Source of the DNA: a virus
Taxonomy: Duplodnaviria; Heunggongvirae; Uroviricota; Caudoviricetes
IMG/VR virus record: IMGVR_UViG_2585427728_000004
Length of the DNA stretch: 11,946 bases
Strand: one strand, 5' to 3'
Shown here: in pieces, positions 1 to 11,946 of the stretch
Position numbering within the stretch: the stretch's first letter is position 1
Layout: each line of letters begins with the position of its first letter
Notes under the pieces: generated by a model
What the model was told of the DNA's origin: nothing
The model's database searches: none
What the model saw: the letters and a program-made list of their open reading frames with translations, nothing else
Made by a program: the position numbers and the translations under genes

Positions 1-1368
1 TTACTTCACGGAATATTTTGCCACGGTCGCTTTCGCGCCATGCGCTAATAAAGACAAGTACGTTTCCGTCACTCTTGCAGTAAACAAACTATTGTCTGGC
101 AAATCATCACCAAAGATCGCCTTAATCGCCAGCAATGACTGGACGCGCGCTTTCCCTTCGTCACTACTTTGTACAGCCTTCTGAATAACAGGTAACAGTG
201 GGTCACTGATTTCTATCGGATTTCCCTGTTCATCAACACCACCGACATAACGCATCCAACCCGCGACGCCCAGCGCCAGCAGATCGAACTTGCTGTCATG
301 CGCCAGATGCCAGCGAACAGAATCCAACATCCGCTGTGGCAATTTCTGGCTACCATCCATCGCAATCTGCCAGGTTCGATGACGTAACGCCGGGTTGCTA
401 TAGCGTGCAATTAATCGGTTAGCGTAATCTTGCAAATCAACGCCCTGCACTTTCAACGTCGGCGCTTGTTCCTGCAACATCAAGCCATACGCCGCATAAC
501 GATATTGTTCATCTTCCATACAGTCATTAATGTGCTGATATCCTGCAAGATACCCCAGATACGCCAGGAATGAATGACTGCCGTTGAGCATGCGCAACTT
601 CATCTCTTCATAAGGCAGCACATCGCTAACCAGTTCGGCTCCCGCTTTTTCCCATTCCGGACGTCCGGCAACAAAGTTATCTTCTATTACCCACTGGCGG
701 AAAGGTTCACAGGCAACGCCCGCAGGATCGCCCACACCGGTAAGTTGTTCGATTTTCGCCAGCGTATCCTCTGTCACTGCGGGCACAATACGGTCCACCA
801 TTGTTGATGGGAAAGTCACGTTATCTTCGATCCATTGTGCCAGTTTTACATCAACGGCTTGTGCGTAGGAAGTGACAACGTCACGCATAACATGACCGTT
901 TTCTGGCATGTTGTCACATGACATGACGGTAAATGCGGGAAGTCCTGCCGCTTTACGGCGAGCCAGCGCCTCAACAATCACCCCTGTTGCTGTTTTCGGC
1001 TGGTGGGGATTTTGCACGTCGGCAGCGACCATCGGGTGATCGAGCATTAACTGTCCGGTCGCCGGAGAGTGGAAATACCCTTTTTCGGTGATTGTCAGAG
1101 AGACAATCGCAATTTGCGGTTCACACATCGCAGCCAGCACGGTTTCTAAGCCATCTATTTGTACGTGCAAGGCTTTTTTAACGACGCCAACGACGCGAGC
1201 CGTCCACGCGTCGGCCGACATTTCCGCAACGGTATAAAGATTATCTTGCTGTTGTAAATCGGCAATTTGCTGTTCGCCGCCGATTAAGTTGACCTCATAA
1301 TATCCCCAGTCACTGAAATGTTCCGTAGCAAGAATACAGAGTGCGTATGAGCGCCTGCAGAAGAAGTG
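1..1368 (-). pseudogene. ydfI: Mannitol dehydrogenase family oxidoreductase (UxuB/YdfI-like), 5'-truncated remnant; the ORF-track ORF 1..1221 is its internal-ATG portion
   Basis: The 406-aa ORF aligns with the UxuB family from about residue 85 to the C-terminus ([45 protein letters not shown]). My hand translation of the same frame upstream of the ATG at 1221 continues the homology ([16 protein letters not shown]) up to an in-frame stop at 1369-1371 with no start codon, so the N-terminal Rossmann region is missing. Symbol is inferred from the neighbouring Qin-like prophage. Confidence 0.6.
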
Positions 1369-1930
1369 TTAACACTGTATTTAGAATAATCAGATGCTCC
1401 ACTTCCCGGAGCACCACTGGAACCACCTGAAACAAATGTCATCGAATGGGTATGTGCACCGGCTGAAGCAGCCGTACCGCTAACACTATGGGTATGCGCC
1501 CCGGTGTTATTCGTGGATTTAGTGCCGTAATCAAACGACGATGTGGTTTTCGTACCCAAATCCGTACTGGATGCGCTGGCGCTGTGGGTGTGCGATTTAA
1601 TGCCGTCCTGTTCCTGAGACAATATGGCTCGACCACTGGCGGGCTTGCCCTTAATCGTCCAGCCACGCAAATCAGGGATCACGCCTGACGGATAAGCGGC
1701 AGCAAGTTTCGGGTAGGCAGATTTGTCAAAAGTCTGCCCCTGCATCAGGGCATAACCAGACGGAACGGTATCTGATGGCCACGGGATTGGTGCGCCGACT
1801 GGGTAGCTTTCTGGTGGAAGATTTTTCGAGGTATAAACTTCTGCCCAGTCTTCCTCAAAACCATAGCCATCTCTTGAAGAACGGTAGAACAGACCTCCAT
1901 TTCTGTAATGCGCCTTCATCTGCAGGGTCC
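1338..1930 (-). pseudogene. Side tail fiber protein C-terminal fragment (Stf/gp37-like tip with GAHTHS repeats), lacking its N-terminal part; approximate boundaries
   Basis: ORF 1284..2051 contains [12 protein letters not shown]...[34 protein letters not shown] followed by three GAHTHS repeats typical of lambda Stf/T4 gp37-type fiber tips. The first ~44 codons and last ~17 codons of that ORF are out-of-frame readings of terminase and ydfI DNA respectively. Confidence 0.55.
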
Positions 1931-3339
1931 GGCAACTTCCGACTCCGGTAGCTGGCCGGATCAATTCGCTGGCTCTCCCCGTCGCTGTCACCGCGCAATG
2001 ACTGCGTGATGTTGTAACGATCAATAATCCAGCGTTCGCCACGGCTGCCATAGCCCGTTACCTGAACCACAAAACGGCGATGACGTCCCGCCTGCACATC
2101 CACTGTCGCCACAAGGAAATTAACGCCATCCGGCACACTGCGGGAAGGAACTGGCTCTGCCCGCTGCTCAAGCAATTCACTTTTTCGTTGCTCCATGCTG
2201 GCGCGGGGAAGATAAGGTAATCCCCAGTCGGTATTGATAACCGTCTTGAGTGTCTCTTCACTTCCGGTTGTCTCGTATTCCTGTTCTGCAGTAAGCAGCT
2301 TGTAAACGAGTTGCGAGAGTGTCTGATAAGCAGCTGCCGGACCCTCCATCCAGAATGACGCAATACGTGAACGCCGGGGATCACCATAACGACTGCCATC
2401 TGCATTGATGGATTCACCATCCCGTAACCAGACCCCACGTCCGTTCAGCTCGCGTTTTTGTTCAGGCAAAATCCGTCCTGAACAGGAAGGACACTGAATA
2501 TAAGCCGCCTCACTTGCCAGCACAGGATCGGCAATATCACGGAAACCAGCAACCACATCGCCGCAGGGCTGAAAATACTCACCACAGTGTGGACAGGGCC
2601 AGTACCAGCGACGGCGATCGCCACGGTTATAGAGCGACAGGATCCCCGTGGTTGGTGGAGCCTCATGCGGTGAAGTCCGTCGCCATTTCACATCCTTCAC
2701 ATCCCTGCCGGGGGAACTCTCCACCAGCGTCATACCACTGGACATAAATGTGGTGGTACGTTTTGAGGCAAGAGAGAAGGCATCCCCCTCACCATCAATA
2801 TCTTCCGGAAAACGGTCATAATCCGTCAGCGCCACGCATTTATAATCTGATGAAGACATGATATTGACTGACGGCCAGCCGATTTTCAGGTAGTTGCCAG
2901 CAAGGAATGTTCTGTCATAAACGTTGTTGTCATTTTTGTTCGGACTCAGGCGACTGACCACTTCCGGGCTGACGCGAAACGTTCTGGCGAGTCGTTTTTT
3001 GGAGTGTTCGCGGGCTTTTTCCTCCGTCATCTGAATGATCAGCATATCAGCAGGATCGCAAATCACGTTGTAAATCACCCAGCCGTCAATCAGGCCGATA
3101 GTCTTGCCGGTTCGTGCCGGGCCAACAAATATCACTGCGTCGTATTCACGCGAGGCCAGGCAGTTCATAGGCTCAATAACATACGGTGCCACCAGCGGAT
3201 CCCACGGGACTGAGTTCCCTGCCCCCATGGGCACCCGCATATACTGAGCAACGGCATCAGCAACCCGCATTCGTCTCGGTGCGCGAAGGATATAACCTGA
3301 ATCGGTTCGTGCTGCCTTTGCGGTTTCCTGATTCAGCAT
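1855..3339 (-). CDS. Phage terminase large subunit (lambda GpA family), C-terminally truncated and fused into tail-fiber DNA; probably non-functional
   Basis: 494-aa ORF with Walker-A-like GPARTGKT, the CPHCGE motif and a WIIDRYNI segment matching the lambda gpA nuclease-domain region. Lambda gpA is about 640 aa; homology ends near residue 465 and the frame then runs through tail-fiber sequence to a stop. The start ATG overlaps the upstream stop (TAATG). Confidence 0.75.
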
Positions 3340-5530: not shown

Positions 5531-5735
5531 TCATTTTCACTTTCTTAAATCTAACGACAGATGGCTAACATTTAAGTATTGTGAAATATTATCAAATGTA
5601 ATCATCATTGATTTACAAAAGATACATTTTGCCCCGAAAGGATTTCTGTCAGAAACATCAAAAGATGATGTTCTATACTGAGAACCATGGCAACACGGGC
5701 ATCTAAAGTGAATATGGTTTGTAATATTTTCTACC

Positions 5736-5948
5736 TCAAAGTGCCACTACATGAACAGCTGCAGGGCCTTTAGGTCCGTTCTCAATACCAAATTCGACTT
5801 CCTGATTCTCAGTTAACGTTTTGAAATCGTTGCTCTGAATAGCTGAGAAATGCACAAACACATCTTTGCTACCATCTTTCGGCGTGATGAAACCAAAACC
5901 TTTTTCAGGGTTAAACCATTTCACTAAACCAGTCATTTTGTTAGACAT
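5736..5948 (-). CDS. cspI: Cold shock protein CspA family (70 aa), CspI-like
   Basis: [70 protein letters not shown] carries the RNP1/RNP2 motifs (KGFGFI, VFVHF) of cold shock proteins; AAGG Shine-Dalgarno and a long AT-rich leader lie upstream. Confidence 0.9.
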
Positions 5949-6311
5949 CATTATTACCTTTTGAAGAAGTTAGCCCTTGGGCAGAATGGTCCGAAAAAAA
6001 ATATCAGAAAGAAAAACCAACAAGGAAATCTCAAGAGGTACAAATAATAAAATTATAACAATGACTGCTTCAGATAATTTTGTAACAAACCAGAACACCA
6101 TTAACGCATGATTAACCAACCATAGCAAGGATTACTTTTGTAAAGAAAAACACACGAATGAAACAATAGCTTTATTTATTAATAAAACGTGTCATTCTGT
6201 CTAATGACCTTTTATCTTACCCTTAAGATTTCAAGGATTTTGACTCATGGAAGAGTCCTTTTTATTTAAATTTCACATTCAGCGCTAAAAATAATCCGAT
6301 TTAATATTAAT

Positions 6312-7334
<1,023 letters not shown>

Positions 7335-7338
<4 letters not shown>

Positions 7339-7650: not shown

Positions 7651-7866
7651 TTACTCTCCTCTCGCAGCCTTACGCCTGTCTTCTTTAATCTTGAAATAAA
7701 GATTTGTCAGATACGTCAGCATGCCAAATACCAGACTACCCAATACACCTATTGCCGCCCACTGTGAGGGCGTGACTTTATCGAGCAACTGTAAAAACCA
7801 GTAGCCAGCACTGCCTGCAGAGGTGCTGTAGGCGATGCCCGTTGTTAACTTATCCATGGATTTCAT
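7651..7866 (-). CDS. essQ: Pinholin, phage 21 S21-like class II holin with dual-start motif (71 aa)
   Basis: [71 protein letters not shown] has two transmembrane segments and a charged C-terminus; GGAGGTGA Shine-Dalgarno upstream. The ORF-track extension to 7950 is read-through. Confidence 0.85.
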
Positions 7867-7954
7867 AGCCTCACCTCCGCAGATAACGGATGGTGTACAC
7901 GGTTTGGTTCGAAGAAGGAAAGAAGTTACATTAGCGTAAGGCCCGAACATCTAT

Positions 7955-7987
7955 TCAAAAAGAAAAACGCCAGCAATTATTCTGGCG
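7955..7987 (-). terminator. Candidate intrinsic terminator between the AraC-family gene and the holin
   Basis: Plus strand aaaaaCGCCAGcaattattCTGGCG; on the minus strand CGCCAG-aauaauug-CUGGCG is followed by UUUUUCUUUUU. Confidence 0.45.
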
Positions 7988-8056
7988 TAGCTAAAAATAT
8001 CGTATAATCTTACACTTCAAAAAATAACTTTATAAAATACCATCACATCATATCTT

Positions 8057-8770
8057 CTAAGAAAATCTTGATAAATATTGGTGCGGAGGCACACCAAAAT
8101 ATCCTCTAAAAACACTTACAAAATATGATGCATTGTCATACCCGCATATTCCCGCCACCTTGCCGACAGTATGGTTACTGTAGATCAATAATCTTTGCGC
8201 CATCATCATTCGTTCTTCAAGAATTAATTTACTAAACGATAATCCTTCGTCTTTTAATTTTCTTTTTAACAAACTCTCGCTCATATATAATCTTGAAGAT
8301 ATATCACAAAGTCTCCATGACGCAGAGATATCCGAGTGAATAATAGCCTTAACTTTACAACCTAAGCTATTAAGACTTCCGAACAAAAAACTTTGCACTA
8401 TTTTCTCTGAAGATAAGACAGCAAGACATGCAAGTGATATTTGATTTCTAACTACATCCACGGTTTTGCTATCACAATTCAAGCATGCAACCAAGTTCTT
8501 TAACAATGAAAAATCTTCACATTCTACTATCAAGTATGACGGATAAAACCTTCTTACAGAAAAAGGTGAGAGTGTGTAGTTTTTAAAGAAATCATTAACT
8601 GTTTTCTCCTCAACATCTACGATCATTAGATGATCTGTATTTGACGAAAAAAGATCTTTTAAATTGTATTCAATGAGGACAGCATTTCCTTTTTTAAACA
8701 AAATATCTTCTTTACCAATTCGGACACCAAACGAGTTCAACACCAAAATGATAGAACATATGTATGGCAT
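8057..8770 (-). CDS. AraC/XylS-family transcriptional regulator (AppY/Rns-like size class, 237 aa from the ATG at 8770)
   Basis: C-terminal double HTH typical of AraC family (LLKRKLKDEGLSFSKLILEERMMMAQRLL...VGKVAGICGYDNASYFVSVFRGYFGVPPHQY). AGGTGG Shine-Dalgarno 5 nt before the ATG at 8770; the ORF-track start at 8779 is GTG. The gene and its ~400-bp upstream region are visibly AT-rich. Confidence 0.85.
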   Translation of the reverse strand: MPYICSIILVLNSFGVRIGKEDILFKKGNAVLIEYNLKDLFSSNTDHLMIVDVEEKTVNDFFKNYTLSPFSVRRFYPSYLIVECEDFSLLKNLVACLNCDSKTVDVVRNQISLACLAVLSSEKIVQSFLFGSLNSLGCKVKAIIHSDISASWRLCDISSRLYMSESLLKRKLKDEGLSFSKLILEERMMMAQRLLIYSNHTVGKVAGICGYDNASYFVSVFRGYFGVPPHQYLSRFS

Positions 8771-9176
8771 ATTATCCACCTGATATCATTGGGGTTACAC
8801 CAGGTAAGTATAGGTGGAAAATCAATATTCGCCAGTTCAACAATAAGGAAAATCTCATTGCATCACAACTATAAAACCATGTGTTTAACTCACAAAAAAC
8901 AAATCATTAAACTAATCTGTTATATTATAATAGCTGCGTGCAATAATAATATTATATGCTCTTAATATTCACTTGAAATATCTTCATATAAAAACAGATT
9001 GAATAAAATCTTTTGGGGCTGGTATGTTTACCAACATTAAATTGCATCTCAATGTTTTCTTTAGCGTGAACAGGATTTTTATAAAAACTGACACTATGAG
9101 CATCATAGCGTAGTTTTTACGATTGTAAATATCCTGCATACAGGAACTCATCACTTTCAGATGATATCGCATACAG
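8771..9176 (-). promoter_or_regulatory. AT-rich leader/promoter region of the AraC-family gene; candidate nucleoid-protein (H-NS-type) silencing target
   Basis: About 400 bp of very AT-rich non-coding DNA between two minus-strand genes. The only ORF here (8984..9172) is low-complexity with no ribosome-binding site. No specific promoter hexamers assigned. Confidence 0.3.
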
Positions 9177-10136
9177 TTAATTCACCATCAGTCTTAGAGC
9201 CAGTTCTTCCGGATAGGGATCGAAGTAGTTCTGTGTAAGCAAGTAATCATTAGGATACTCACCCAGATAATGCTTCAGCAGAGTCAACGGCGCAAGAAGA
9301 GGCAATGTGCCAAAGCGATAGTTAAGTATAACCTCGCTCAACTCTTTACGCTGGCGTGTACTTAAGTAATTACTAAAATACCCCTGTATATGCATCAGCA
9401 CATTCGTGTGATTTTTACGTGATGCTGGTTTTCTGAGAATCGCCATCAGATTATCACGATACACCTCAAAGTATGATTCAAGGTCCGCCCACTCGTGTAT
9501 TGCAGCCACAAATGGTCCCATATCTTTATAGCCTGCCTGGCTATGCGCCAACAACTGAAGCTTATAACGACTATGAAAAGCTAATAACTCTCTTCTTGAT
9601 AATTTCTCCTTGTAAAGGTGATTGAGCTCATGCAAAGCAAAAACTCTTTCAATAAAATTCTCACGAAGCACTGGATCATGTAATCGCCCATCCTCTTCAA
9701 CCGGTAGCCAGGAAAACTTTTCCATCAAAGTGCTCGTAAATAGTCCCACTCCATCTTTACGACCTCGATTACCATTTTCATCATAGACACGCACGCGCTC
9801 CATGCCACAGCTGGGAGATTTAGCACAAACCACAAACCCCGATACATCCTTTAATTTGTCCATATAAGAACGACTAAACTCTGTCATTCTCTCTGTCACA
9901 TCCTCATTCTGGTCGTGGCTGAAACACATCCGTATATTTCCTTGCTTCGAGCGCACAAGTCGTAGAGCAGGACGCGGAACTGGCAGCCCTATAGCCATTT
10001 CCGGACATACTGGTCTGAATGTTACCCATTCCACTAATTTGTCCATTAAAAAGTCATCTCTTTTGTGACCACCATCAAAACGAACAGCAGAACCGCCCAA
10101 ACAACCGCTGATCCCAATCACAGGTTTTTTTATCAT
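9177..10136 (-). CDS. DUF523/DUF1722 fusion protein (TudS-like putative [4Fe-4S] thionucleobase desulfidase with YbgA-like domain)
   Basis: N-terminal MIKKPVIGISGCLGGSAVRFDGGHKRD with three spaced cysteines (GISGC, PVCPE, SPSCG) as in DUF523/TudS; the C-terminal half resembles DUF1722 (YbgA). Strong GGGGGAGGAA Shine-Dalgarno 4 nt upstream of the ATG. Confidence 0.8.
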   Translation of the reverse strand: MIKKPVIGISGCLGGSAVRFDGGHKRDDFLMDKLVEWVTFRPVCPEMAIGLPVPRPALRLVRSKQGNIRMCFSHDQNEDVTERMTEFSRSYMDKLKDVSGFVVCAKSPSCGMERVRVYDENGNRGRKDGVGLFTSTLMEKFSWLPVEEDGRLHDPVLRENFIERVFALHELNHLYKEKLSRRELLAFHSRYKLQLLAHSQAGYKDMGPFVAAIHEWADLESYFEVYRDNLMAILRKPASRKNHTNVLMHIQGYFSNYLSTRQRKELSEVILNYRFGTLPLLAPLTLLKHYLGEYPNDYLLTQNYFDPYPEELALRLMVN

Positions 10137-10328
10137 TTCCTCCCCCTTGACTAATTCATTAACACATAAACTTTGTAGTGCACGGACTAAATTGCCTTTC
10201 TGGCTTCATCACTGACAATTTTTCTGTTATTGACTATTCCTAATATAGTAGGAAAGTTCTTTAAGTGATCGGTCGTACTCATCTATCTTTCATACTTACT
10301 CTCAACTATCAAAAGTACAGGATTTATT
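10137..10328. promoter_or_regulatory. Divergent intergenic region between the DUF523/DUF1722 gene and the lipocalin gene; presumed to hold both promoters
   Basis: 192-bp gap between divergently oriented starts; contains TTGACT- and TATAGT-like hexamers but no confident -35/-10 pairing by eye. Confidence 0.3.
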
Positions 10329-10853
10329 ATGAAGTTATGGCCTGTGTTGACTGGCATTGCACTCTCTTTCACTCTTATAGCATGTAAGGCCCCGACACCA
10401 CCTAAAGGTGTGCAGCCGATTACAAATTTTGACGCCAACCGCTACCTCGGAAAATGGTATGAAATAGCTCGCCTCGAGAACTGGTTCGAACGTGGTCTGG
10501 AACAGGTCAGCGCTACTTATGAAAAACGGAACGACGGAGGGATTCGCGTACTTAACCGTGGATACGATCCAACGAAAAACAAATGGAGCGAGAGCGAAGG
10601 TAAAGCATACTTTACTGGAGATACTAAAACTGCAGCGTTGAAAGTTTCGTTTTTTGGCCCCTTCTATGGTGGCTATAATGTAATCAAACTGGATGATGAG
10701 TATAAGTATGCTCTTGTCAGTGGTCCGAACAGAGAATACCTATGGATTCTGGCAAGGACCCAAACTATTCCAGATAATGTAAAAGCAGACTATGTGCGTA
10801 CCGCTCAAAAGTTGGGATTCAATGTCAATGAACTATTATGGGTTAAACAATAA
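10329..10853 (+). CDS. Bacterial lipocalin Blc-like outer-membrane lipoprotein (174 aa)
   Basis: Signal peptide with LIAC lipobox (MKLWPVLTGIALSFTLIAC), then Blc motifs NFDANRYLGKWYEIARLENWFERGLEQVSATY and GKAYFTGDTKTAALKVSFFGPFYGGYNVIKLD...YLWILARTQ. AGGA Shine-Dalgarno upstream. Only plus-strand gene in the window. Confidence 0.85.
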   Translation: MKLWPVLTGIALSFTLIACKAPTPPKGVQPITNFDANRYLGKWYEIARLENWFERGLEQVSATYEKRNDGGIRVLNRGYDPTKNKWSESEGKAYFTGDTKTAALKVSFFGPFYGGYNVIKLDDEYKYALVSGPNREYLWILARTQTIPDNVKADYVRTAQKLGFNVNELLWVKQ

Positions 10854-10881
10854 AATCCCCACCCGAAATGATACTTATTAG

Positions 10882-10908
10882 AAAAAAACCAGCCTTTGGG
10901 GAGGCTGG
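10882..10908 (-). terminator. Intrinsic terminator ~100 nt downstream of the Q gene (tR'-like candidate)
   Basis: Plus strand gaaaaaaaCCAGCCTttggggAGGCTGG; on the minus strand a 7-bp GC-rich stem with 6-nt loop is followed by UUUUUUUU. No T-run follows on the plus strand, so it is unidirectional. Confidence 0.5.
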
Positions 10909-11008
10909 CTAAATCAGGAAACAAGCTGTTATATGATAATAACTACGTTGCGATTCCAACATTTAAAATGTTAGACTAATGAAAATCAGACAGCAACTTT
11001 TCCTTTAA

Positions 11009-11386
11009 TTATTTCGAACAATCAGCATCCATCTCCAATCGGAGATCCAACACCATCAGCATGCCCTCCACTACGCCCTCAGCTTTCTGGAGCATCCTGC
11101 CAACCCAACAATCAGATCGCCCATGCTTACGTGCAAGCGCCATAAAAGTCATGCCGCCGACATAATAGTCCACCAATAAATCATGTAAATCGCTGTTGTT
11201 TTTTTTCAGGCGAGCCATACATTCACAAATGATCATCGCGTCATCGTCACAGCATTGCGGACGAGATCTTACTTTTGAAGGAATTAATCCCTTAAAACCG
11301 GCGGCAATGGACGACCAGGTCACATCTTCATGATTATTAGCCGCCCATGCCCCCCAACGCTCAAGAACCATCTGAATATCACGCAT
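11009..11386 (-). CDS. Late-gene antitermination protein Q (short QuuD/phage-82-type, ~125 aa)
   Basis: [24 protein letters not shown]...[18 protein letters not shown]... matches the short Q antiterminator family with its cysteine cluster; GGAG Shine-Dalgarno 9 nt before the ATG at 11386. The ORF-track start at 11401 is TTG. Confidence 0.75.
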
Positions 11387-11403
11387 CAACTTACTCCACA
11401 AAA

Positions 11404-11946
11404 TTAGGCCAGCACACCAATTGCCAGCGCGCGATCGATAAATCGAAAAATCAGCTCCAGTTGGGAGCCATACTTCTCTTCAAATGCCACGGTATCCGTA
11501 TGCAACTCGTCGTGATGCTTTCTGCACAAAGGCAAAACAAAGAGATCATGTGCTTTGGTTCCCATTCCGCCCTGCCCGTGACCAATCAGATGATGCGGAT
11601 CGTCGGCTGGCATACCATATCGGTGAATAACGGTTTCGCTGTGATGATAATCGCCGTGTGGCCACTGGCAGGATTTAATATGGCGCAACAGCCAGTCAGA
11701 CAATGCACCAGCACCACCAGCAGCACGAATTACCCGTGCGTTACTGAAAAACGGCAGCAATGTTTTGTCTTCCACCAGCGGCTGGCGAACGGCAGGAACG
11801 ACCCCGGACGGCAGATTACGCATGCTTTTCGGTTCCGGCTCCACCAGTACCCGGGTATTGTGGAATACCGGCATGGATTCACGGCCCGGCTTAACGACCA
11901 CCAGCCCGAGTTCCGGTACCAGAACAGGTCGAAGTAATACCCGCAC
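11404..11946 (-). CDS. DUF968-family prophage protein (YdfU-like), C-terminal ~180 aa; gene continues beyond the window end
   Basis: ORF runs off the window edge; contains the HNH/zinc-like motif [28 protein letters not shown] and sits immediately upstream of Q as ydfU does in Qin. Confidence 0.6.

Follow-up and report, generated by a model that had tools for sequence, protein, structure and literature searches.

A prophage Blc-type lipocalin gene between Q and holin, probably captured together with a neighbouring RudS gene

The window, by which we mean the whole 11,946-nt stretch of DNA analysed here, carries a Blc-like lipocalin gene (blc) between the antiterminator and holin genes of an E. 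coli prophage. Followed along the late strand, the order of the cassette is Q, a terminator, blc on the plus strand, then a RudS-like gene, an AraC-like gene and the holin gene, all three on the minus strand:

11009–11401, minus strand: antiterminator Q (from the RefSeq start, 125 aa at 11009–11386; Pfam Phage_antitermQ, 8e-51)
10877–10910, minus strand: intrinsic terminator of the late strand, a hairpin at 10910–10887 with a 9-bp stem followed by T7, in the tR′ position, past Q and its late promoter and short of the 3′ end of blc
10329–10853, plus strand: blc-like gene, a 174-aa precursor of a Blc-family lipocalin lipoprotein (ORF, NCBIfam, Pfam, PDB, RefSeq)
9177–10136, minus strand: RudS-like gene (DUF523/TudS plus DUF1722, Pfam), the divergent partner of blc
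8057–8779, minus strand: regulator gene of the AraC family (AppY/YdeO-like; Pfam HTH_18), third among the cargo genes here
7967–7988, minus strand: terminator-like hairpin (terminator scan) between the AraC-like gene and holin, at the end of the cargo block
7651–7950, minus strand: holin (Pfam Phage_holin_2_1, 6.1e-34; RefSeq essD at 7651–7866), the late lysis gene that comes next after the cassette

E. coli ET881 has an identical segment in its chromosome, and RefSeq places all other coding sequences over the extent of the window on the minus strand there, which leaves blc as the only annotated plus-strand gene. Placed between a minus-strand Q with its late-strand terminator and a minus-strand holin, blc is antisense to late transcription as modified by Q; the initial annotation was right about both the lone orientation and its consequence. 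The cargo also differs from its phage neighbours in GC content, with 0.438 for blc, 0.433 for the RudS-like gene and 0.335 for the AraC-like gene versus 0.471 for Q and 0.473 for holin.

The blc ORF starts with ATG and occupies exactly 10329–10853. Its protein, annotated in RefSeq as WP_000780584.1, ‘lipocalin family protein’, scores 312.6 bits against NCBIfam NF007786, ‘outer membrane lipoprotein Blc’, above the curated cut-off of 267 bits, with residues 1–174 aligned to positions 1–174 of a profile of 176. It also matches Pfam Lipocalin_2 (PF08212, E = 7.5e-43) and the solved structures of E. coli Blc (3mbt_A, E = 8.3e-67; 1qwd_A, 1.7e-65; 2aco_A, 2e-65). These structure matches are ungapped over residues 16/20–174 at 59–65% identity and give the protein a lipocalin fold by homology. 

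The N terminus of the protein, MKLWPVLTGIALSFTLIAC, carries a lipoprotein signal:

10329–10385, plus strand: type II (lipoprotein) signal peptide, read and computed from the sequence
10374–10385, plus strand: lipobox Leu16-Ile-Ala-Cys19, within the signal peptide

A lysine at position 2 is followed by a hydrophobic core (mean Kyte–Doolittle value of 1.86 over residues 3–18), and Cys19 of the lipobox is the sole cysteine of the protein. The lipobox stands at the same place in 117 of 118 aligned sequences, a set made up of homologues, the window protein and the K-12 protein, and both signal peptide and lipobox are unchanged across all five blc alleles. The clear signal peptide and LIAC lipobox described from the letters alone are thus borne out, as is the Blc-type lipoprotein, here by a score above the NF007786 cut-off and PDB matches at E ~ 1e-66. 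Cys19 is followed by Lys-Ala, with no Asp at +2; under the Lol sorting rule of E. coli, Lys at this position predicts targeting to the outer membrane. That the gene codes for a Blc-family lipocalin, and that it is a moron occupying the Q-to-holin slot of lambda-like phages, we regard as nearly certain; a lipid anchor in the outer membrane is the predicted state of the protein.

The surrounding prophage is an 11.9-kb Qin-type remnant in which repressor/immunity, replication and integrase genes are absent, the lysozyme gene is frameshifted, and the terminase and DUF968 genes are truncated. As the prophage is dead, blc would here behave as an ordinary chromosomal accessory gene, and the contrast of lysogen with induction in which the initial annotation framed its expression is ill-suited to this window. 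Rfam at gathering thresholds gives a single match in the window, a cspA thermoregulator at 5690–6095, and no non-coding RNA near blc.

Several further features bear on transcription around blc:

10137–10328, no strand assigned: divergent intergenic region of 192 bp between the RudS-like gene and blc, expected to hold the promoters of both
10237–10254, no strand assigned: 18-bp near-palindrome TTCCTAATATAGTAGGAA (inverted repeat I2)
10283–10296, plus strand: putative −10 region for blc transcription, CTATCTT / CATACT then TA, from homology alignments
10319–10322, plus strand: Shine–Dalgarno sequence AGGA, 6 nt upstream of the blc ATG and kept in all alleles
10911–11008, minus strand: stretch downstream of Q where pR′ and the Q-utilisation site would be expected, assigned by position only

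The intergenic region has a mean column identity of 96% among five alleles and is 192 bp long in 76 of 77 IMG/VR loci. Its blc-proximal half, including the −10 region, aligns with the MerR–blc intergenic regions of chromosomal relatives, in which the candidate −10 corresponds to CTACACTTA; the equivalent position upstream of K-12 blc reads CTACACT. A strict consensus scan found no sigma-70 site upstream of blc on the plus strand, and since no convincing −35 could be placed by eye for either divergent promoter, we report only the homology-based −10, so that the promoter call is a putative one drawn from homology. Dependence on sigma-S (RpoS), with expression in stationary phase, may be supposed by analogy with the chromosomal blc, reportedly described by Bishop et al. 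in 1995. The 18-bp near-palindrome may be a binding site for a regulator or else the −10 of the divergent promoter, and its core, AATATA(G/C)TA(G/C)GAA, varies little or not at all across six chromosomal MerR–blc intergenic regions. An operator for a dimeric regulator at this position is a doubtful reading: the element is palindromic only in its phage version, and the chromosomal intergenic regions hold no conserved inverted repeat.

At the other end of the gene, the late-strand terminator hairpin is identical in all five blc-bearing sequences aligned, and the minus strand of 10870–10975 folds with −28.7 kcal/mol (z = −4.79). The region downstream of Q shares blocks, such as ATATAACAG, with the quuD–nmpC spacer of DLP12, and the window Q is 86% identical to QuuD of DLP12. 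Downstream of blc on the plus strand, the terminator scan showed no hairpin followed by a T-run.

The window gene is a paralogue, not an orthologue, of the E. coli blc that lies in the ampC/gdx–sugE neighbourhood. The two proteins share the family, the length, a lipoprotein signal with a non-Asp residue at +2 and the blocks GxWYEIAR, SEGKAYFTG, ALKVSFFGPFYGGYNVI and YLWIL, and a similar −10 region of the CTACACT type is found in relatives of the window gene. However, window Blc is only 59% identical to K-12 Blc (b4149; 1QWD, 2ACO, 3MBT), and it is prophage-borne and paired with RudS rather than adjacent to ampC/gdx. Blc proteins encoded next to gdx are 76–82% identical to K-12 Blc and 56–61% identical to the window protein, which instead groups, at 73–80% identity, with an unnamed paralogue found in Enterobacter, Leclercia, Buttiauxella, Huaxiibacter, Raoultella and Cedecea. 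These closest non-phage relatives have a nearly identical N terminus (MKLWPV.TG...L.L.ACK.PTPPKGV) and a homologous upstream region, and in Enterobacter, Leclercia, Buttiauxella and their relatives the gene stands head-to-head with an operon of an MlrA-like MerR gene, a transthyretin-like gene and RudS.

Of 16 chromosomal loci encoding a Blc with 69% identity or more to that of the window, 11 have a RudS gene upstream on the opposite strand and 11 have the MlrA-like MerR gene; neither gene occurs in any of nine loci where the orthologue of E. coli blc lies beside gdx. The RudS-like protein of the window is 70–72% identical to the RudS encoded beside the closest chromosomal relatives of Blc. 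Furthermore, RudS and Blc keep in the phage the relative orientation that they have in these chromosomes, and their GC and GC3 are nearly equal (GC3 of 0.411 for blc and 0.406 for the RudS-like gene), which argues for capture as a pair. We therefore consider it likely that a stress locus in other enterobacteria was the source from which blc was captured together with RudS, a desulfidase acting on 4-thiouridine in tRNA, and this co-capture is the one, modest, new point of our analysis. The direct donor is not among the sampled genomes, as the GC of the sampled chromosomal relatives, 0.51–0.60, does not match the 0.44 of phage blc and RudS. The phage cassette differs from the chromosomal locus as well in having the AraC-like gene and in being without the MerR and transthyretin-like genes.

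The AraC-like gene appears to be a separate acquisition. The best NCBIfam match of its protein is YdeO, under the cut-off, and its identity to AppY is 30%. Against phage records, tblastn gave 37.8% identity to an Stx2k phage gene and, over the C-terminal 40%, 41.7% identity to a fragment from an O157:H7 strain. An identity of the gene as PatE, PsrA or PsrB is tentative.

The initial annotation had thought that a lipocalin would be unusual among outer-membrane lipoproteins of prophages, a view that its distribution contradicts. The gene is present in 1,146 of 5,426 complete E. coli genomes (21%), on 130 IMG/VR contigs and in 12 deposited phage genomes; 1,038 genomes hold at least 80% of the locus, and the E. 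coli laboratory strain NEBExpress has it at 99.9% identity. It is annotated in RefSeq and has its own PHROG, phrog_2809, a family without assigned function and the only one that window Blc matches. According to Mathieu et al. (2020), over 50% of the lambda phages of the infant gut carry blc as a moron (PMC6969025), and theirs is the only relevant paper that we found on lipocalins in prophages, lambdoid morons or exclusion; the literature yielded no functional study of a phage-borne blc, and a search by RefSeq protein accessions came back empty. A phage-borne blc is thus already known, and the gene itself, annotated, very common and published as frequent lambda cargo, carries little weight as a discovery.

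Phages IdasGreatGrand and 1H12 share this cassette order, as do two further prophage backbones and 69 of 80 IMG/VR loci, so that the cassette sits on at least three phage or prophage backbones; the AraC-like gene is present in 70 of these 80 loci, 69 of which have Q too. Phages isolated as such carry the same gene, cassette and orientation, as in phage 1H12, with gp65 (‘Lipocalin Blc’), and in the infant-gut lambda phages; the window differs from these in that its blc lies in a Qin-type remnant rather than a complete phage and is a distinct allele (R52W, G65E, P145Q), with seven amino-acid differences from gp65 in 174. The slot itself holds other cargo elsewhere, with cspB/cspF in K-12 Qin and, after the related Q of DLP12, nmpC in antisense. 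NmpC of DLP12, Bor of lambda and the Bor-like gp71 of 1H12 are all outer-membrane morons encoded near lysis genes and against the late operon. Window Blc is unrelated to the porin NmpC and the Bor/Iss lipoproteins and has no Pfam match to their families, but by analogy with lambda bor and with nmpC it has the layout of a moron that would be expressed independently of the lytic programme.

We suggest a history in which an ancestral blc stood head-to-head with the MerR(MlrA-like)/transthyretin-like/RudS operon of other enterobacteria and a phage took the two outer genes, RudS and blc, leaving the regulator behind. The AraC-like regulator, of much lower GC, would have joined the pair afterwards, and the resulting three-gene cassette would now move with a Q gene of the QuuD type among several lambdoid backbones. 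On this account blc retains a chromosomal-type promoter region of its own and faces against the late operon, so that the protein would be made from the resident prophage and not in lytic development. After processing by signal peptidase II and Lol sorting, Blc would be anchored on the periplasmic face of the outer membrane. E. coli Blc is a lipid binder, and the phage-borne paralogue may likewise bind lysophospholipids, fatty acids or damaged lipids, helping to maintain the envelope in stationary phase or under oxidative, including photo-oxidative, stress. Such a lipid-handling stress function is plausible, if somewhat short of probable. Taken whole, from the identity of the gene through co-capture and its own promoter region to the stress role, this explanation is the best we have and is rather probable.

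That Blc could instead exclude competing phages, by blocking an outer-membrane receptor or the entry of DNA, was the idea of the initial annotation and is suggested by precedent: Cor and Llp block FhuA, and window Blc, a predicted lipoprotein of the outer membrane, is encoded by a prophage at a place where lysogenic-conversion genes are found. Membrane proteins, moreover, predominate among lambda morons (PMC6969025). We nevertheless find this reading quite improbable. PADLOC gave no match for the Blc, RudS-like or AraC-like proteins, PHROGs returned only families without function, and Blc passes a curated model over its full length. The initial annotation had likened the gene to Bor, Lom and Cor, with roles in serum resistance, adhesion or receptor blocking, and this analogy found no sequence support: the Pfam scan gave only lipocalin families, and the Pfam, PHROGs and PADLOC scans revealed no membership of Bor/Iss, Lom/Ail or Cor/Llp. 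The ancestry of the gene, which points to a chromosomal stress locus and to non-prophage contexts in many species, disfavours both the analogy and exclusion; the lipid binding for which E. coli Blc is known speaks against exclusion as well.

Selection on the gene helps in weighing two other readings. If blc were a passenger of little or no function, hitch-hiking with RudS, the AraC-like regulator or both and drifting towards loss in a remnant, one would point to the decay of the prophage around it, to the IS1 insertions seen in blc of some genomes, and to the window allele, which has three lineage-specific amino-acid changes versus two synonymous ones. One of these, R52W, replaces an arginine found in 114 of 116 close homologues (98%) in the loop after the first strand; it could matter for binding of lysophospholipids or fatty acids, and the window copy may be impaired. 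By contrast, all 80 of the 80 IMG/VR loci keep an undamaged 174-aa ORF, and most of the locus is kept in over a thousand genomes; dN/dS between alleles is 0.07–0.29, a range that excludes the nearly identical 1H12/CFIA pair and that indicates purifying selection; the signal peptide and lipobox do not vary; and the exact W52 protein, on at least 1,000 contigs, has persisted widely, all of which makes a mere passenger unlikely. More improbable still, to the point of being barely credible, is a regulatory role in which convergent transcription of blc into pR′–Q dampens leaky late or Q expression by interference or antisense RNA. Read-through is conceivable, as blc faces Q and pR′ with no T-run terminator on its strand, and nmpC is oriented alike in the DLP12 slot; but purifying selection on the coding sequence and conserved lipoprotein signals speak for a function of the protein, the orientation to RudS is present in the chromosomal source locus and was thus inherited rather than evolved in the phage, and unmodified late transcripts are already stopped by tR′.

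Returning to the stress reading, the paralogue status of blc and its RudS partner from a MerR-regulated locus lead to the hypothesis of a stress-protection module rather than to phage exclusion. The RudS-like protein of the window is 92% identical to gp66 (RudS_vir) of phage 1H12, a protein that reduced the 4-thiouridine of tRNA when overexpressed in E. coli, and RudS genes sit in light-responsive, MerR-controlled operons (PMC11417400). For Blc, a link to light or oxidative stress would come from gene neighbourhood and one transcriptome of a distant genus: in Cedecea, the MerR–blc pair adjoins a cluster of SnoaL, SDR, amine-oxidase, DUF1365 and CFA-synthase genes, and in a Stenotrophomonas chrR mutant a lipocalin was induced 165-fold together with the cfa cluster (PMC11832516). 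A two-gene module of RudS and the Blc paralogue protecting against near-UV or photo-oxidative damage is, on this evidence, a possibility that we hold doubtful. Were it true, the module would pair removal of 4-thiouridine from tRNA with care of damaged envelope lipids; its two genes would have left a MerR-controlled locus, but not the regulator, and lambda-like phages would have carried them into about one-fifth of E. coli, and the prophage would alter how its host copes with light and oxidative stress outside the gut. Finally, according to the RudS paper, homologues of RudS are missing from E. coli; this is true of the core genome alone, and prophage copies are widespread.

The gene under study and its neighbours between Q and the holin are listed here in the direction of late transcription.

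11009-11401, minus strand: Q (Pfam Phage_antitermQ; 86% identical to QuuD of DLP12)
10910..10887, minus strand: late-strand terminator hairpin from the terminator scan, a 9-bp GC-rich stem followed by a run of seven T
10329..10853, plus strand: blc-like gene, ATG start, 174 aa (ORF list)
10482-10484, plus strand: blc codon 52 (R52W)
9177-10136, minus strand: DUF523+DUF1722 (RudS-like) gene
8057-8779, minus strand: AraC-family gene
7988..7967, minus strand: terminator-like hairpin before the holin

The blc product scores 312.6 bits over its whole length against NCBIfam NF007786, "outer membrane lipoprotein Blc" (curated cut-off, 267 bits), matches Pfam Lipocalin_2 (E=7.5e-43) and aligns without gaps to the solved E. 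coli Blc structures 3mbt, 1qwd and 2aco (E~1e-65 to 1e-67), confirming the Blc-type protein read by the initial annotation. The signal peptide and LIAC lipobox that it described are also present: in the N-terminus, MKLWPVLTGIALSFTLIAC-KA, residue 2 is basic and the core is hydrophobic (mean hydropathy 1.86), and Cys19 of the L-I-A-C lipobox, the sole cysteine in the protein, is followed by Lys at +2. The lipobox occupies the same place in 117 of 118 aligned sequences (homologues plus the window and K-12 proteins). Because of this Lys, the E. coli +2 rule for lipoprotein sorting predicts a mature lipoprotein destined for the outer membrane. Over the window extent, in the identical segment of E. 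coli ET881, blc (RefSeq WP_000780584.1, "lipocalin family protein") is the only CDS not on the minus strand, as the initial annotation had it.

The stops of Q and blc are 155 bases apart. The late-strand terminator hairpin is identical across all five aligned blc-bearing sequences, and the segment containing it forms a much more stable fold than its shuffled controls do (-28.7 kcal/mol, z=-4.79); judging from where it lies, Q-modified polymerase has to read through this terminator. No late promoter downstream of Q could be placed confidently within the window. Past the terminator, the late direction runs through blc (antisense), a 192-bp divergent intergenic region, the RudS-like and AraC-family genes, the second hairpin and the holin, so that late transcription must cross blc on the wrong strand, as had been proposed. 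In intact phages, Q-modified late transcription would thus run antisense through blc and should silence it in lytic growth. Both bor and DLP12 nmpC, the latter in the same slot, are likewise crossed antisense by late transcription, and outer-membrane cargo in this orientation recurs in the Q-to-holin slot. One case is the porin gene nmpC at the K-12 DLP12 locus (L007, 1957-5614), where Q is 86% identical and nmpC, too, reads against the late operon.

The broad distribution of the cassette overturns the suggestion that a lipocalin would be unusual in the role of a prophage outer-membrane lipoprotein. Of 5426 complete E. coli genomes, 1146 have a 784-bp segment with blc (1038 of them with 80% or more of it covered, and some with up to four copies). 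Coverage of the Q-to-holin block reaches at least 80% in 924 genomes, and at least 1000 contigs in the public protein collection encode exactly the window protein. Twelve deposited phage genomes, including IdasGreatGrand and 1H12 (genus Jouyvirus), carry blc, always in the order Q(-), blc(+), RudS-like(-), AraC-like(-), holin(-). In IMG/VR, 130 contigs have a close relative; among the best 80 of these, the 174-aa open reading frame is intact in all 80, the complete four-gene order is present in 69, with shorter arrangements in the others, and the RudS-blc spacer measures 192 bp at 76 of 77 loci. The cassette sits on at least three backbones, one Qin-like with DUF968 and two lambda/DLP12-like with rusA-ylcG. 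In the survey of Mathieu et al. (PMC6969025), over half of the infant-gut lambda phages had blc as a moron. The finding of blc is therefore real but ordinary, already known from annotation and that survey; the additions made here are its paralogue assignment and its joint origin with RudS. The PHROGs family of the protein, phrog_2809, has no assigned function. A blc 97% identical and a Q gene 98% identical also lie at 984-1972 of a 2.1-kb contig (JARKOR010000135.1) from a 'Candidatus Nanosynbacter' MAG; this contig, binned as Saccharibacteria, is almost certainly E. coli prophage DNA assigned to the wrong bin.

The window protein is only 59% identical to K-12 Blc. With one genome taken per species, Blc loci fall into two clearly separate groups. 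Nine loci adjacent to gdx (sugE), often with ampC, encode proteins 56-61% identical to the window Blc and 76-82% identical to K-12 Blc, and are the orthologues of E. coli blc; none of the nine has RudS or MerR nearby. The 16 loci closest to the window Blc encode proteins 69-80% identical to it and 65-69% identical to K-12 Blc. A RudS-type gene, 70-72% identical to that of the window, lies upstream on the opposite strand in 11 of these 16, and an MlrA-like MerR regulator is directly divergent from blc in 11 of 16; where either gene is present, Blc is 73-80% identical to that of the window. In Enterobacter mori, RudS(-) is followed by transthyretin-like(-), a MerR gene(-) with MlrA_helical and MlrA_C domains, and blc(+); this regulator and E. 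coli MlrA share 40% identity. Of this locus, the phage cassette retains only the outer pair, in unchanged relative orientation; the two genes between them are missing.

The blc and RudS-like genes are also alike in composition (GC, 0.438 and 0.433; GC3, 0.411 and 0.406) and unlike both the AraC-like gene (GC 0.335) and Q and the holin (0.47). On its blc side, the phage intergenic region can be aligned with chromosomal MerR-blc spacers, sharing the box AATATA(G/C)TA(G/C)GAA, and about 30 bases before the blc start codon CATACTTA in the phage aligns to CTACACTTA in the chromosomes; upstream of K-12 blc, CTACACT lies equally far from the start. Given the shared orientation, matching GC and GC3 and alignable upstream regions, RudS and blc were probably captured jointly from a chromosomal locus of the MerR/RudS type. 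The MerR regulator was probably lost, and the AraC-like gene appears to be a separate addition. As the sampled chromosomal relatives have a GC of 0.51-0.60, either the direct donor is unsampled or the two genes drifted towards phage composition. An 18-bp near-palindrome, TTCCTAATATAGTAGGAA, lies upstream of blc at 10237-10254; its core is kept in chromosomal MerR-blc intergenic regions, in non-palindromic versions.

Its DUF523 (TudS)+DUF1722 fusion places the product of 9177-10136 in the RudS family of tRNA 4-thiouridine desulfidases. The identity to phage 1H12 gp66 is 92%, and Cys12, Cys44 and Cys110 are all present; RefSeq names the gene 'YbgA family protein'. Overexpressed in E. coli, RudS genes lower tRNA 4-thiouridine and shorten the UVA growth delay, and gp66, the viral RudS tested, is active on tRNA, more weakly than other RudS proteins (PMC11417400). 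The same study places RudS genes, those of Enterobacter cloacae among them, in operons that respond to light and are governed by MerR-type regulators, and states that E. coli is without RudS homologues, which is true for the core genome only. In Stenotrophomonas, a lipocalin gene lies within a cfa cluster controlled by ChrR/sigma-E, and its expression rises 165-fold when chrR is mutated (PMC11832516). On a Cedecea lapagei contig (L010, 1-5531), a cluster of SnoaL, SDR, amine-oxidase, DUF1365 and cyclopropane-fatty-acid-synthase genes adjoins the MerR-blc pair, the same set that is under ChrR/sigma-E control with the lipocalin in Stenotrophomonas. These neighbourhoods associate the window-type paralogue with (photo-)oxidative stress, short of proof. 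Among phages, the AraC-family regulator at 8057-8779 (minus strand) is a constant member of the cassette; the GC of its gene is very low (0.335). It shares 30% identity with AppY, a regulator of DLP12, and its best curated match, YdeO, falls below the cut-off.

Beyond what the sequences show (family, lipoprotein signals, position, orientation, distribution, paralogy and co-capture), we infer a mechanism in which blc would be transcribed from its own promoter of chromosomal type, possibly RpoS-dependent like that of E. coli's own blc, and its product processed by signal peptidase II and sorted by Lol to the inner face of the outer membrane. There it would bind lysophospholipids, fatty acids or damaged lipids, to the benefit of the host under stationary-phase or photo-oxidative stress. 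Such a lipid-handling stress function is a tentative reading; the paralogue assignment and RudS co-origin turn "function unknown" into a testable stress-module hypothesis. The initial annotation was right about a moron antisense to late transcription, but its Bor/Cor-like role fares no better than its claim of rarity: exclusion of other phages by the lipoprotein is quite improbable, finding no sequence support in Pfam, PHROGs or PADLOC and running against the chromosomal ancestry of blc. A purely regulatory role through convergent transcription is more improbable still, because the orientation goes back to the source locus and the protein has been conserved.

That blc is a functionless passenger is unlikely, given intact open reading frames and purifying selection: dN/dS between alleles is 0.07-0.29 (the nearly identical 1H12/CFIA pair left out), and the protein is therefore maintained. 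The passenger reading is possible for the W52 allele. The window allele carries R52W, G65E and P145Q, absent from the four other alleles, alongside only two lineage-specific synonymous changes. Of 116 close homologues, 114 (98%) have Arg52, as does K-12 Blc; among the best 80 of the 130 IMG/VR loci, position 52 is Trp in 34 and Arg in 46. This residue sits in the loop that follows the first beta-strand; in lipocalins, this loop covers the pocket entrance. The copy in this Qin remnant may thus be altered or weakened.

The window is an entire decayed Qin-type prophage between ydfI and rspB. Its left part holds a 5′-truncated ydfI, a fusion of a tail-fibre fragment with a truncated large terminase, and then DUF1441, gnsB, ynfN and cspI; the lysis part holds an Rz/Rz1 pair, a frameshifted lysozyme, ydfR and the holin; and the right part holds the three cargo genes, Q and a truncated DUF968 gene. 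Just outside sits an integrase fragment. As neither the ORF list, Pfam nor the ET881 annotation places a repressor, replication module or complete integrase in the window, blc cannot switch between lysogenic and lytic programmes in this genome. The earlier framing of expression in the lysogen versus after induction does not apply here, where blc is a resident accessory gene.

Deletion scars mark both ends of the remnant (1-3339 and 11404-11946): ydfI lacks its 5′ end, near 1855-2051 the tail-fibre fragment overlaps the large terminase, which has lost its C-terminal end, and the DUF968 (ydfU) product is 180 aa long, versus about 349 aa in other strains. A frameshift splits the prophage lysozyme gene rrrQ (6806-7338, minus strand), intact elsewhere, for example in E. 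coli H2, into two open reading frames. Embedded in rzpQ is an RzoQ-type o-spanin lipoprotein gene (6362-6658, minus strand; 95% identical to K-12 RzoQ, lipobox LTSC) that is unannotated in the RefSeq record of the identical strain, so blc is not the sole lipoprotein gene of the window. The Rfam cspA thermoregulator matches 5690-6095 (minus strand) at 111 bits against a gathering score of 78, spanning the cspI leader and coding region.
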